Source: Candidatus Micrarchaeia archaeon
GTDB lineage: Archaea > Micrarchaeota > Micrarchaeia > Burarchaeales > JACRGF01
DNA: 26,761 nucleotides
Direction of reading: 5' to 3'
Assembly (NCBI GenBank): GCA_038870455.1
Contig: JAWCPB010000015.1
Coordinates: 1 to 26,761, forward strand
Part shown: one piece after another, positions 3,324-16,013 of the stretch
How the letters are laid out: the number at the start of each line of letters is the position of its first letter
Position numbering within the stretch: position 1 is the stretch's first letter
The notes under the pieces: generated by a model
The model's input: only the letters and a program-made list of their open reading frames with translations
Databases searched by the model: none
What the model was told of the DNA's origin: nothing
Position numbers and translations under genes: made by a program

Positions 3324-3872
3324 ATGCGTTTGTTCATTGCGGTTGAATTATCCGATGAAATTCTCAGCGTGCTCTCTCAAGCCCAGGCATCGCTGCCGCG
3401 CGAGGGGCTCGTTTTCGTGAAGAAGGAAAATCAGCACCTCACGCTGAAGTTTCTGGGCGAGGTCGGCGAGGATAGGCTGCCCACGCTCAAGGCCGCGCTG
3501 GATGGGTGCAGGCGAGCCCCGTTTCAGGTTACTGTCAAGGGGGTCGGCGTCTTCCCCAGCGAGAAGTTCGTGCGCGTTGTGTGGGCCGGCGTGCACAGCA
3601 CAGAGCTGGCAGCGCTGGCGGCATGCATCGACAATGCGCTCGCCCCCCTCGGTTTTCCGAGGGAGGAGCGCCCATTCTCGGGCCACATCACGCTCGCGCG
3701 TGTAAAAGCAAAAACCGATGTGAGCCGCTTTCTCGCGCGCTTCCGCGATTTCGACTTCGGGAGCTGTCGGATTGACCGCTTTGTGCTCAAACGGAGCACG
3801 CTCACGCCAAGGGGCCCGATTTACGATAACATGCACGTGGTGGTGTTGGAGAGCTCTCCGAATAGAGTTTGA
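3324..3872 (+). CDS. thpR: RNA 2',3'-cyclic phosphodiesterase (2H phosphoesterase, LigT family)
   Basis: MRLFIAV start, two HxT motifs (HLTLKFLGE, HITLARVK), and C-terminal S.LTP.GPIY. Confidence 0.95.
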   Translation: MRLFIAVELSDEILSVLSQAQASLPREGLVFVKKENQHLTLKFLGEVGEDRLPTLKAALDGCRRAPFQVTVKGVGVFPSEKFVRVVWAGVHSTELAALAACIDNALAPLGFPREERPFSGHITLARVKAKTDVSRFLARFRDFDFGSCRIDRFVLKRSTLTPRGPIYDNMHVVVLESSPNRV

Positions 3873-3942
3873 AAATTTTAGGCTGGTGCACTACCCAGAG
3901 CCGTCCATTAGCATTTAAAATGCACAACATATCATTGGTTGC

Positions 3943-4026
3943 ATGGACTTGTGGCTCATCAGAATAGAGCGTGTGCGCGGCAACCCGTTCCTCGCCGTTT
4001 TCTGGAGTTGGATTCGGGAGGGATAA
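3943..4026 (+). CDS. Possible 27-aa small ORF (MDLWLIRIERVRGNPFLAVFWSWIREG)
   Basis: ATG at 3943 to TAA at 4024-4026, with TTTAAAA at 3914-3920 at leaderless-promoter spacing. No recognisable homology. Confidence 0.25.
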   Translation: MDLWLIRIERVRGNPFLAVFWSWIREG

Positions 4027-4040
4027 AGTTCAGACCGTGA

Positions 4041-4356
4041 CTACGCTACCTCGGCAGCCCGCTTTCCGATGAGCGGATACATAGGCGCTCTGCCGGTGAA
4101 TGCCGAATAAATTTGGTAGAGCCAAAGCAGACCTACTACTATGACCCACGCTATGCCTAGCAGCGGGCTCAGCATAGAAAGCTCCTTCACCCCAATGGCG
4201 ATTCCCCCCAAACATGATAATCAGCATAATAATAACAATCGGGAAGCTCATCAGGAGAAGCAGCAGAAATTGGGCGGCGTGAAACCTCACAAAGCGATCT
4301 TTGGACAGAAAGAACGCAAGCAACGGGACGACAATACCAATAAGTCCAGTGTGTCT
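4041..4356 (-). pseudogene. DUF4870 (Tic20-like) membrane protein remnant, 5'-truncated and frameshifted
   Basis: Frame 1 reads HTGLIGIVVPLLAFFLSKDRFVRFHAAQFLLLLLMSFPIVIIMLIIMFGG. After the G6 run (C6 on + at 4204-4209) the hydrophobic sequence continues in another frame: IAIGVKELSMLSPLLGIAWVIVVGLLWLYQIYSAFTGRAPMYPLIGKRAAEVA*. An in-frame TAA lies immediately upstream and there is no ATG. Confidence 0.7.
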
Positions 4357-11966: not shown

Positions 11967-12847
11967 AACTTTTCTTCGTTGTCGATTCCCGCGAGCTTCG
12001 CCCTCGCTTCCTGCAGCAGAATGCCGAGCCCCCTTCCGAGGATGAAGAGCGGGGAGCGCTCGGCCCTGCTCGGCTCCTCGGCCTGCGGAAGGTGGAGAAG
12101 CCAGTCGAAGAAAGGCCCTCTCGTTGAGGGCGGCAGCTGGACGCAGAACCTCTCGCCGGCCAGGCCGGCCCTGCGGATCGCCTTCTCGGCGATTCTCTGG
12201 AACCTCACGGCCGCTCCCGGAAAGCGCTTTTTGCCCCCGATAAGCCTAACGCTCACCGTCTCAACGCCGGCCGCCGTCTCGACCCTCCTCGGCGCGTGGT
12301 TGGTCTGCGCGTACACGCTGGGAACGAGCGCGACCACTCTCGCGCTCGGCTCGCGTTTTAGGAAGTGCGCGATGACGTCGGCCATGTGCTCCTCCTTCTT
12401 CTCCCTCATCAGCGCGGTCTGGCGCCCGAACTCGCGCAGATACCCCCTCCTGATGTAGTCGGTCACCTCGAGCGCGAGCACGCGTGCCCTGCACGTCTTC
12501 TCGAAGTTCAGTCTCCGCACTTCATCGAGCAGCCTGGCGAGCGCTGCCCTGTGCTCTGGGGGAAAGGCGGCCAGAGGCGCGAGCGCGTCCTCCCTTCCCC
12601 TCCCCCTGAACGCGTACTCATCGAGCGCGCCCTGCGCGTCGCTCGGCCATGCATCGAGCGCCAGGTTAGAGAAACCAAGCCCACACAGCCCGCTCAGGTT
12701 CTCTGTGAGCTCCGCCTTTCCGGCCAGCACGTCGCGGCACTCGCCGATGAAAAGCGCCCTCGCCCGCCCGGCAATCCTCGCCCAGTCTACGGGCGCGCGC
12801 TTTTCGAGCAGAGCGTAAAACCCTTCCACTGAGGCGAAAGGCTCCAC
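11963..12847 (-). CDS. Hypothetical protein, probable degenerate ChaN/EreA/TIKI-like fold
   Basis: Motif order 'LFIGECRD', 'GFSNLALDAW...QGALDEY', 'KEEHMADVI...RVVALVP..Y' mirrors ChaN/EreA-like GExH, LALE, RD..MA and VV..G..H, but the conserved residues are substituted. The fold call is tentative. Confidence 0.55.
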   Translation of the reverse strand: MEPFASVEGFYALLEKRAPVDWARIAGRARALFIGECRDVLAGKAELTENLSGLCGLGFSNLALDAWPSDAQGALDEYAFRGRGREDALAPLAAFPPEHRAALARLLDEVRRLNFEKTCRARVLALEVTDYIRRGYLREFGRQTALMREKKEEHMADVIAHFLKREPSARVVALVPSVYAQTNHAPRRVETAAGVETVSVRLIGGKKRFPGAAVRFQRIAEKAIRRAGLAGERFCVQLPPSTRGPFFDWLLHLPQAEEPSRAERSPLFILGRGLGILLQEARAKLAGIDNEEKF

Positions 12848-14588: not shown

Positions 14589-14876
14589 TTAACTCACTCT
14601 GACGAGATGAACGCCTGGAACAACGAGGCGCTTGGCTGCCCCGCCGTCCTGAATCTCGACTATGTAAGCGCTTCCCTGCATGCCGACCACCCTACCGGTC
14701 CTGCCCCTGTACCTCGGGTGCGGCATGCCGGCGTGGCCTCCCCTGGCCTGTATGGCCACGCGCTCGCCCTGCGCGAACCGCCTGAGCAGGGCGCTCGTTC
14801 CGAGCCTCCGCGCGCTCGCCCTGCGCCTAAGGAGCCTGCTTCTCTTCGATAGCTTGCCCAATGAACGCTTCAACAA
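14589..14876 (-). CDS. rpl21e: 50S ribosomal protein eL21
   Basis: F..GERVAI, GMPHPRYRGRTGRVVG, AYIVEI.DGG..K.L.V...HL. TTG start with a GGAGG RBS. Confidence 0.95.
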   Translation of the reverse strand: MLKRSLGKLSKRSRLLRRRASARRLGTSALLRRFAQGERVAIQARGGHAGMPHPRYRGRTGRVVGMQGSAYIVEIQDGGAAKRLVVPGVHLVRVS

Positions 14877-14988
14877 AACCGCCTCCCAGAAGTTATTTTT
14901 TCAGGGGTTTGCTATTTAAAAGGATATAGTTAAATAGGTTGCGAGGGAAACATTTAAATACCGGCGAATTTTTTCCGGGGTGGTTCGT

Positions 14989-15315
14989 TTGGCTCGCAAG
15001 AAAAAACGCGGGAGAAGGGCTAGGGGAGTGTCTATCCCGAGGCCGAGGTTCAAGATAGAGAACATCGTCGCAAGCGCCAACCTGGGCATCGAGCTCGACC
15101 TGTACGCGATCGCGCAGAAGGTGCGTGACGTGGAGTACGAGCCCGAGCAGTTTCCCGGCGCCATACTCAAGCTCAAACAGCCGCGCGCCTCGCTGCTGCT
15201 GTTCAAGAACGGCAAAGTCATCTGCACGGGCAGCAAGAGCGAGGCCGAGGTCAAGCAGGCGCTCGACCAGGCCGTGCGCATGCTGGCGCTGCACGTGGTG
15301 CGGAAAAAGAAGTAA
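14989..15315 (+). CDS. Single-repeat (half-size) TATA-binding protein homolog with basic N-terminal tail
   Basis: One complete TBP repeat: IENIVASANLGIELDL...EYEPEQFPGAILKLKQPRASLLLFKNGKVICTGSKS, then stop. Probable start is TTG at 14989 (GGGGTGG RBS) or GTG at 14980. TTTAAATA lies at 14953-14960. Confidence 0.92.
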   Translation: MARKKKRGRRARGVSIPRPRFKIENIVASANLGIELDLYAIAQKVRDVEYEPEQFPGAILKLKQPRASLLLFKNGKVICTGSKSEAEVKQALDQAVRMLALHVVRKKK

Positions 15316-15342
15316 TTTAAACTCCGCCTGTGCAATATGTTC

Positions 15343-15458
15343 GGTCAGCGGCCACAGGAGAGGGGTCAGACCCGAACCCATTCCGAACTCGGCAGTGAAT
15401 CCCTCTCACGACGTTGCCTGTACTGCCCTACGGCGGGAAAGCGCGTTGCTGCTGGCCA
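15343..15458 (+). rRNA. rrf: 5S ribosomal RNA (stand-alone)
   Basis: Terminal helix GGTCAGCGGC/GCTGCTGGCC, helix II GAGAGGG/CCCTCTC, conserved CCCATTCCGAAC loop, GTACTG...GGGAAA loop E region. TTTAAA at 15316-15321 lies upstream. Ends are approximate. Confidence 0.9.
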
Positions 15459-15488: not shown

Positions 15489-16013
15489 TCATTGCGCGTT
15501 AATCTCGACTTTTCCGGCCGCTATGCGTATTTCCTCTGGCGTTATGGTGAAGTGGTGGCGGAAGTACAGCGCGCCGCTGAAGCTCTCGTTGGCCGCGAAC
15601 TGCCTGTTCTCGCCCGCTTCGTTCCTGCACGGCACGGGCGCGAGGTCCGCAGCCCCTCCTTGCGGAATGCTCCTGTTCAGCTTCGTCCATTCAGTTTCCG
15701 GAAGCAGCCGCACGTCGCGCGCCTTGCTCGAGCAGTACAGGCCCGTCACGACGACTTCCCCGGGCAGGGTGTTCTTCACCCTCAGCGCCAGATAGCCGTC
15801 CTTTGAAAGCCTTGCTGAGCATGCGAGGCCTGGCGGCAGCAGGCACTCCCGCGAAGCGTTTTCGTCCGCCAGCGTCGCGTTGGCCCCCGCGCACTCCTCC
15901 AGGCTCTCGGCGAACGAGCCGTTGAGGCATACGAACGCAGCGCCCGCCGGCCCCCCAGCACACCCGAGCAGGGCGACGCCTGCAGCCAAAACAACTATCA
16001 GTCTCTTCATCAT
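15489..16013 (-). CDS. Hypothetical Cys-rich exported protein with lipobox-like signal
   Basis: MMKRLIVVLAAGVALLGC signal/lipobox-like N-terminus, multiple cysteines, beta-rich C-terminal domain. Confidence 0.7.
   Translation of the reverse strand: MMKRLIVVLAAGVALLGCAGGPAGAAFVCLNGSFAESLEECAGANATLADENASRECLLPPGLACSARLSKDGYLALRVKNTLPGEVVVTGLYCSSKARDVRLLPETEWTKLNRSIPQGGAADLAPVPCRNEAGENRQFAANESFSGALYFRHHFTITPEEIRIAAGKVEINAQ

Follow-up and report, generated by a model that had tools for sequence, protein, structure and literature searches.

A TATA-binding protein with a single repeat, probably working as a homodimer, at the TBP locus of a Micrarchaeota genome

TATA-binding protein (TBP) serves transcription initiation throughout archaea and eukaryotes. 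The stretch of DNA analysed here (the window, 26,761 nucleotides of contig JAWCPB010000015.1 in the Candidatus Micrarchaeia assembly GCA_038870455.1) carries a TBP gene whose product contains one TBP repeat only. The host genome belongs to the Micrarchaeota, is 1.04 Mb in size with 60% GC, and is assembled in 51 contigs with an estimated completeness of 90%. Divergent to the TBP gene lies rpl21e, with rpoF/Rpb4, DUF655 and the KsgA rRNA dimethylase (ksgA) also present on the opposite strand upstream of TBP. As rpl21e begins at 14876, 112 nt from the TTG start codon of TBP, there is no space for an upstream repeat, as the first-pass annotation of this DNA had stated. Details of the features are presented in Table 1.

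The open reading frame (ORF) spans 14980..15315 (+) and is 111 aa in length when counted from its GTG. In a relative of the same genus, a 1-nt gap separates this GTG from the in-frame TTG at 14989, so that only the TTG keeps the frame. Together with the gene call of the protein database, where the sequence (P0075) is 108 aa long, and the M-A-K/R-K N-termini of relatives, this places the start of the coding sequence (CDS) at the TTG. The earlier description of a frame of ~108-111 aa with one TBP repeat, a TATA box, a Shine-Dalgarno-like element and a stop is therefore retained, while its start at GTG 14980 has to be given up. The position of the Shine-Dalgarno-like GGGGTGG is occupied by GGTGTGG in the relative L028.

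Table 1. Coordinates of the one-repeat TBP gene and adjoining features in the window.
Feature	Position	Strand	Basis and remarks
One-repeat TBP CDS	14989..15315	+	108 aa, TTG start, TAA stop; ORF list, same-genus frame comparison, database gene call, PF00352 102 bits
Single TBP repeat, S1-H1-S2-S3-S4-S5-H2	15049..15288	+	PF00352 six-frame genome search; AlphaFold2 model; Foldseek
Arg/Lys-rich N-terminal tail ARKKKRGRRARG	14992..15027	+	Translation; pLDDT 56-65, without secondary structure
F55 codon (EQFPG), first DNA-kinking phenylalanine	15151..15153	+	Invariant in 48/48; aligns with the FPG phenylalanine of solved TBPs
F72 codon (LLLF), second phenylalanine	15202..15204	+	Invariant in 48/48; aligns with the LLIF/LLF phenylalanine of solved TBPs
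Upstream in-frame GTG segment, probably untranslated	14980..14988	+	Out of frame with the conserved TTG in a same-genus relative
TATA box TTTAAATA of the TBP gene	14953..14960	+	Sequence; kept in the genus; fits the genome-wide promoter motif
Shine-Dalgarno-like GGGGTGG, 6-12 nt 5' of the TTG	14977..14983	+	Sequence; kept in the genus; putative function
Divergent rpl21e	14589..14876	-	PF01157, 69 bits
5S rRNA gene	15344..15457	+	RF00001, 59.7 bits; preceded by ATTTAAAC at 15317-15324

The profile PF00352 matches the TBP ORF with an E-value of 1.3e-29 and 102.3 bits (cut-off 22.9), covering profile positions 2-83 of 85 as a single stretch (residues 24-103 of the 111-aa ORF). With one stretch only, the two tandem repeats that make up the ~180-200 aa chain of a canonical TBP are not present in it, and none of the 10 NCBIfam models for full-length TBP (PRK00394 type) reaches its cut-off (best 95.3 bits vs 270). 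Annotation pipelines that rely on full-length TBP models with such high cut-offs will under-call TBP in one-repeat genomes. Among solved archaeal TBPs, the best match is the M. jannaschii protein (E 1.8e-41), and the solved archaeal TBPs span a range from 1.8e-41 to 2e-37. The AlphaFold2 model of the monomer has a mean predicted local distance difference test (pLDDT) score of 81.6, with 88-93 in the core, and shows the element order S1-H1-S2-S3-S4-S5-H2. When the predicted monomer was compared with known structures using Foldseek, the first 44 matches were all TBPs, the best of which could be overlaid through half of an archaeal TBP at a root mean square deviation of 0.8-1.3 Å over 76-79 columns.

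The motifs pointed out at first pass, namely the phenylalanines in QFPG and LLF, the acidic stirrup and GK...TG, are all present. An alignment of 48 one-repeat proteins has 17 invariant columns, including Y50 E51 P52 E53 Q54 F55 P56 G57 (YEPEQFPG), F72, G75, C79 and G81; in the NGK.ICTG motif, to which the last three belong, N74, K76 and T80 are at least 90% conserved. The canonical archaeal TBPs of known structure (M. jannaschii 2Z8U, S. acidocaldarius 1MP9 and P. woesei 1AIS/1PCZ) have in common with the one-repeat protein the fold, the NIVAS strand, the YEPEQFPG stirrup, the phenylalanine pair and GK..TG. Identity to either of their repeats is ~42-49%, and the presumed job with transcription factor B (TFB) and the TATA box is the same. 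Judged by its sequence, the protein is a bona fide TBP repeat which retains every motif expected to contact DNA and TFB. Unlike canonical TBP, however, the chain consists of one repeat without the inter-repeat linker and with basic tails on both sides, so that the saddle must form between chains. It also differs from canonical TBP in having LDLY, FPGAI, a Lys in the place of an Arg, and FKNGK; these features are common to the one-repeat proteins and to both halves of the fused Micrarchaeota TBPs, and the canonical repeats are without them.

The basic N-terminal tail had been thought to take the place of the first repeat. This idea is not borne out, since similar Lys/Arg-rich N-termini are present on the fused two-repeat relatives and some one-repeat relatives ('Iainarchaeum'-type) are nearly tailless. 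The length of the tail among relatives ranges from 0 to ~30 aa.

A six-frame search of the host genome with PF00352, at E up to 10, was used to look for a full-length TBP or other halves. The one-repeat TBP is the only match above the cut-off in this 90%-complete genome, and no full-length TBP was found. The next two matches have 15.7 and 15.2 bits, the latter on contig C9 with a stop codon within the match. No second TBP repeat was found in any frame between positions 12001 and 18500 of the window. Two TFB genes are encoded in the host genome (contigs C3 and C4).

A TBP match is present in 27 of 28 further genomes from the same genus, family and order, the matchless one being 73% complete. 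All the listed matches of the order are in open frames of at most 145 aa, and a two-repeat TBP frame was found in none of the 27 genomes with a match, which include G008 and G013 with a completeness of 98-100%. Two relatives assembled as single contigs (G069 and G072) have exactly one TBP match each, in frames of 140 and 116 aa. Pairwise ratios of nonsynonymous to synonymous substitution (dN/dS), calculated over 82 codons for 19 genes of the order, range from 0.000 to 0.195 over all printed pairs with dS <2.5; for the gene in the window and the same-genus gene, dN is 0.027 and dS is 0.322, giving a ratio of 0.084. Ratios of this size indicate that the gene is functional and under strong purifying selection. 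The one-repeat form first noted in this DNA is a trait of its lineage.

The wider sample of the phylum consisted of 251 genomes (two of these, G216 and G061, are unpublished and carry no claim), of which 244 have a TBP match. Among the matches listed, families f10, f12, f14, f15, f18 and most of f17 have one repeat in a 92-168-aa frame, family f13 has two repeats, each in a frame of its own (107-134 aa) and at a different place, and families f11, f16, f19, f20, f21, f22 and f25 have two repeats in one frame of 190-223 aa. In a second, small phylum ('Iainarchaeum' loci) all 20 genomes contain a TBP match, many of them in one-repeat frames of 88-124 aa. After de-duplication, rpl21e is divergent to the TBP gene within 900 nt in 62 of the 72 genes with one repeat and in 30 of the 33 with two, leaving aside 5 more one-repeat and 2 more two-repeat genes with too little DNA upstream. 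The presence of rpl21e next to both kinds shows that the one-repeat gene fills the same slot as the fused two-repeat TBP, and the divergent rpl21e-rpoF-DUF655-ksgA neighbours of the gene in the window are indeed those of the two-repeat genes of relatives. One repeat is the fixed state throughout the order and in much of the phylum.

Some TBP genes in the sample have other arrangements. In family f13, the two one-repeat paralogues are unlinked (for example L136 and L137 on contig C2 of G032; also L138-L141), with one at the rpl21e locus and the other elsewhere, and they form two separate clades; this pair may represent a natural heterodimeric TBP. At locus L037, one-repeat TBP genes are present in tandem (2486-2815 and 3764-4090), separated by 1.2 kb and with hardly any difference over the 82-codon core (dN 0, dS 0.036), which is the sort of arrangement able to yield a fused gene. 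Extra two-repeat TBPs with the canonical signature (FPGL, Arg and FxSGK) are present in two bins (L133:2712-3266 in G162 and L134:2647-3219 in G059), on contigs of 8.4 kb and 3.7 kb, respectively, and off the rpl21e locus. It is possible that these are foreign or host DNA in the bins, or have been transferred. Downstream of TBP, the 5S rRNA gene is found at many loci of the order. On the far side of it in the window, a 174-aa ORF (15489-16013, -) is without any Pfam match and has an N-terminus resembling a lipoprotein signal, with a hydrophobic stretch ending in LLGCAGG.

The use of TATA boxes in the host genome was analysed in the region from -55 to -15 of 847 crudely called ORF starts. The hexamers TTTAAA and TTAAAT are enriched 14.3-fold and 17.5-fold in this region, and 62 of 135 TTTAAA sites begin within -30 to -21, a spacing typical of archaeal promoters with a short leader or none. 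The host genome thus still uses TATA boxes. With the peak of these hexamers lying 21-30 nt ahead of the first start codon in the crude ORFs, most genes would be leaderless or very short-leadered. The TTTAAA core is a palindrome, and the flanks of 92 TTTAAA sites are asymmetric, with A at -5 in 50% and T then A on the 3' side of the core in 47% and 50%. In the 112-nt divergent intergenic region of the TBP gene itself (14877-14988), three TATA-like elements are present at 14911-14923, 14925-14939 and 14950-14962. Compared with L028, the genus carries ~48 extra bases, which bear the TATA box closest to the TBP gene.

Pairing of two copies was modelled using residues 14-108 and a 48-row alignment, in three runs and with three controls. 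The homodimer obtained an interface score (ipSAE) of 0.58 (0.58, 0.58 and 0.56 in the three runs) vs 0.00 for the best control. Among proteins of known structure, this ipSAE mark was reached by 20 of 30 solved as one-chain pairs and by 1 of the 23 whose structures are single chains. At least 91% of the contacts are common to the runs, with a partner pLDDT of at least 82. The predicted interface is formed by residues 16-34 (S1), residues 77-79 and helix H2, with I26 touching I26, which indicates a two-fold axis across which the S1 strands are paired. The two lobes of normal TBP meet in this way, with S1 strands pairing across the axis.

A homodimeric, fully symmetric TBP had been one of three explanations offered at first pass, and it is the one that gains support, by inference from the sole repeat, its position at the TBP locus and the purifying selection, and by the prediction that passed its controls. 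We consider it likely that the protein is the sole and homodimeric TBP of the organism, with promoter direction left to TFB and the TFB-recognition element (BRE). Two copies would pair via antiparallel S1 strands (residues 16-34, with the axis at I26) and H2, and in doing so would rebuild the ten-stranded saddle that is otherwise made by two fused lobes. The symmetric dimer would bind the TATA box with its palindromic TTTAAA core, each subunit inserting F55 and F72, and would present two identical YEPEQFPG stirrups to TFB. In archaea with a normal TBP, contacts between BRE and TFB set promoter direction. Since a symmetric dimer cannot distinguish the two directions, polarity would have to come from TFB reading BRE and from the flanks, which are asymmetric (A at -5 and TA 3' of the core). 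The basic tail, variable as it is, probably gives extra, non-specific affinity for DNA.

Four points weigh against this interpretation. The host genome taken alone leaves some room for a further TBP in its unassembled DNA, as it is 90% complete and in 51 contigs. The predicted interface is the lobe contact of normal TBP structures, and therefore the pass of the homodimer may reflect memory of solved TBP lobes by the model, that is, likeness and not binding. Positions that are fixed in canonical TBPs are altered, with Lys for the Arg found in 10 of 10 canonical repeats, FPGAI for FPGL[VI] and FKNGK for FxSGK, so that DNA or TFB contacts may differ. Finally, the unlinked paralogues of family f13 and the fused genes elsewhere indicate that a plain homodimer is not the sole workable solution in the lineage.

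Among the alternatives, the one that survives best, although we regard it as unlikely, is that the protein does not form a saddle and acts as a half-site monomer, as a higher oligomer or in another nucleic-acid-binding role, with promoters read mainly by TFB. According to Brindefalk et al. 2013 (PMC3597702), single TBP-fold domains act alone in proteins such as RNase HIII and DNA glycosylases, and the lineage-specific changes at canonical DNA-side positions would fit such a role. However, the residues of the S1/H2 interface are conserved together with the motifs for DNA and TFB, TATA boxes show strong enrichment at the distance expected of them, and the fused relatives have the same signature residues in both halves, showing that two such lobes work side by side.

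Somewhat less probable still is a split TBP, in which the protein would form a heterodimer with a very divergent TBP-fold protein encoded at another place in the genome. The candidate partner is a 93-aa ORF with a remote TBP-like domain (L002:1426-1707, corresponding to 20138-20419 of contig C2 of the host genome), which is weakly TBP-like with 16.4 bits against PF00352 (15.7 in the six-frame search) and an hhalign probability of 62% against the TBP profile (E 7.7e-5, 55 columns). Comparable weak matches are present in 99-114-aa frames of three relatives (G003, G011 and G035), and family f13 keeps its two unlinked paralogues. However, the score of the 93-aa ORF is under the Pfam cut-off, and the ORF is without the NIVAS strand and both phenylalanines (ELATP replaces EQFPG and LALY replaces LLLF). 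A ThiI-like PP-loop gene (L002:809-1429) ends within the ORF, as though the two formed an operon. In size and divergence the ORF is similar to the 91-96-aa euryarchaeal monopartite TBP-domain proteins which, according to PMC3597702, coexist with a normal TBP. The ORF is an unlikely partner, and the homodimer model already passes its controls; the split TBP put forward earlier is not supported. A 719-aa ORF in another genome (L142:1185-3344, contig C8 of G272) has four TBP-like repeats with ENILATA strands, of which repeats 2 and 4 retain FPA; after the repeats come a hydrophobic stretch and then a long C-terminal region. Since it also adjoins a ThiI-like PP-loop gene, lying directly 3' of it, a ThiI-linked family of TBP-domain proteins may exist.

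The third explanation offered at first pass was an accessory or regulatory half-TBP acting as a decoy for TFB or TBP, a role that halobacterial TbpA may have, which would place the real two-repeat TBP in the unassembled 10% of the genome. The 51 contigs with 90% completeness and the extra canonical two-repeat TBPs on short contigs of the bins G162 and G059 could be taken in its favour. However, a two-repeat frame is present in 0 of the 27 genomes of the order with a match, some of them 98-100% complete, the single-contig genomes G069 and G072 have one match each, and the gene occupies the TBP locus itself. The extra canonical TBPs, for their part, are off the rpl21e locus on small contigs (8.4 and 3.7 kb), possibly as foreign DNA. 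With no canonical TBP found for it to compete with, the decoy is unsupported and we consider it very unlikely. Nothing beyond the half length speaks for a misassembly, a recent deletion or the decay of a normal TBP gene into a pseudogene, and these can practically be dismissed, as the same architecture is present in 77 distinct one-repeat ORFs from independent assemblies after de-duplication, dN/dS is far below 1, and the intact frame, start, TATA box and stop are conserved.

The history of the sole, presumably homodimeric TBP was analysed at the level of its repeats. Derivation from the C-terminal half of a two-repeat TBP, favoured at first pass, is not supported. Scores against the N and C repeats of solved TBPs are mixed (69/73 for M. 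jannaschii, 68/64 for S. acidocaldarius and 58/72 for P. woesei), the N repeat scores best in eukaryotic TBPs, and the best stretches of the NCBIfam models fall on either half. N-type and C-type repeats are told apart by only 2 alignment columns, at both of which the one-repeat proteins are divided, and segment identities to N and C differ by 0.01 overall. In an approximately unbiased (AU) test on the flanks, grouping of the one-repeat proteins with C-type repeats was not rejected (p 0.57), and the free tree placed them beside N-type repeats. A chimeric origin by recombination in the homogenised centre was also considered, but its signal in the protein from the window is too weak (first segment N 0.64 vs C 0.59, last segment C 0.33 vs N 0.24).

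In a tree of 96 repeats and 88 columns, all 86 repeats of the Micrarchaeota type (one-repeat, N and C) are separated from 10 canonical repeats, taken from three haloarchaeal plasmid TBPs and from L133 and L134, with a support of 100/97. In the full-repeat trees, N and C repeats of the same protein fall together, and the AU test rejects a split of all N vs all C repeats (p 0.003, log-likelihood difference 82), for groups named after the tree had been seen. Repeated re-duplication was considered as an explanation and withdrawn, because gene conversion between the halves explains the trees equally well.

The fused Micrarchaeota TBPs (L122, L124 and L043 are examples) resemble the one-repeat protein in the rpl21e locus and in the signature residues of both halves, with 60-74% identity; unlike it, they put two lobes in one chain, with halves that gene conversion apparently keeps alike. 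In 7 of 11 fused genes, the halves have identical runs of 95, 98, 93, 65, 60, 47 and 46 nt in the central segment, and in the other 4 the runs are 26, 18, 17 and 11 nt; the runs in two canonical genes are 13 and 5 nt. The central runs are shared between the halves while the flanks differ (for example in L122:3034-3609, L116:1162-1758 and L108:1486-2031), and the central protein segment is 92% identical between the halves of one protein vs 85% between N repeats of different proteins. These patterns point to intragenic gene conversion, which would keep the DNA- and TFB-facing parts of fused TBPs symmetric. In a tree without the centre (55 columns, weak support), the repeats of f11, f16, f21 and f25 sort into N and C types across families, and a single group takes in all 40 one-repeat proteins.

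Gene conversion blurs the repeat tree, which is compatible with a one-lobe state either ancestral to the phylum or derived in it. Micrarchaeota lie inside Archaea, and other archaea and eukaryotes share the two-repeat TBP. Therefore, the one-lobe state is most likely secondary relative to the canonical duplication, and descent of the Micrarchaeota repeats from ancestors in which the canonical N/C duplication had never taken place is highly improbable. It is conceivable, though we hold it only tentatively, that the one-lobe state is ancestral for the phylum and that the fused two-lobe genes in it are secondary re-fusions. If this is true, the birth of a two-lobed TBP from a homodimer would have been replayed in nature with all the stages surviving together, namely the sole homodimer in the host order, the unlinked halves of f13, the tandem half-genes of L037 and the fused genes with gene conversion.

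Stand-alone TBP repeats have been described earlier in another setting. Halobacterial TbpA likewise consists of one TBP repeat and groups with the repeats of true TBPs; according to Brindefalk et al. 2013 (PMC3597702), it is non-essential and occurs beside full-length TBPs in the same species. The one-repeat protein described here is different in being the only TBP found in its genome, present at the TBP locus and fixed across an order. Euryarchaea have divergent monopartite TBP-domain proteins of 91-96 aa beside TBP, such as P. furiosus NP_578195 (Table 3 of PMC3597702), which are similar to the one-repeat TBP in being stand-alone domains of the TBP fold of ~90-110 aa. In contrast to these far-diverged proteins, the one-repeat TBP scores 102 bits, keeps all the TBP motifs and has no normal TBP beside it. 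The single-domain proteins described in PMC3597702 all accompany full-length TBPs, and its passages on them make no mention of Micrarchaeum or ARMAN; the portion of a comparative genomics study of DPANN archaea that lists TBP gives it merely as conserved (PMC8407392). A literature search that did not extend to subscription journals and supplements turned up PMC3597702 and incidental mentions, and no organism described as having a one-repeat protein for its only TBP.

Fusion of the two subunits of an ancestral homodimer is the long-standing explanation for the two-lobed, pseudo-symmetric saddle of TBP. If, as seems probable, it works as two identical copies, the one-lobe TBP of the host has the form long proposed for this ancestral TBP, and an entire Micrarchaeota order, together with much of the phylum, appears to run on one-lobe TBP alone. 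Natural one-lobe proteins make it testable whether a directional pre-initiation complex can be built from a perfectly symmetric TBP, whether polarity can come from TFB and BRE alone, whether two TFBs can be bound at once, and what advantage the fusion of the lobes and their later differentiation bring. For all of these, the phylum itself supplies intermediate architectures for comparison.

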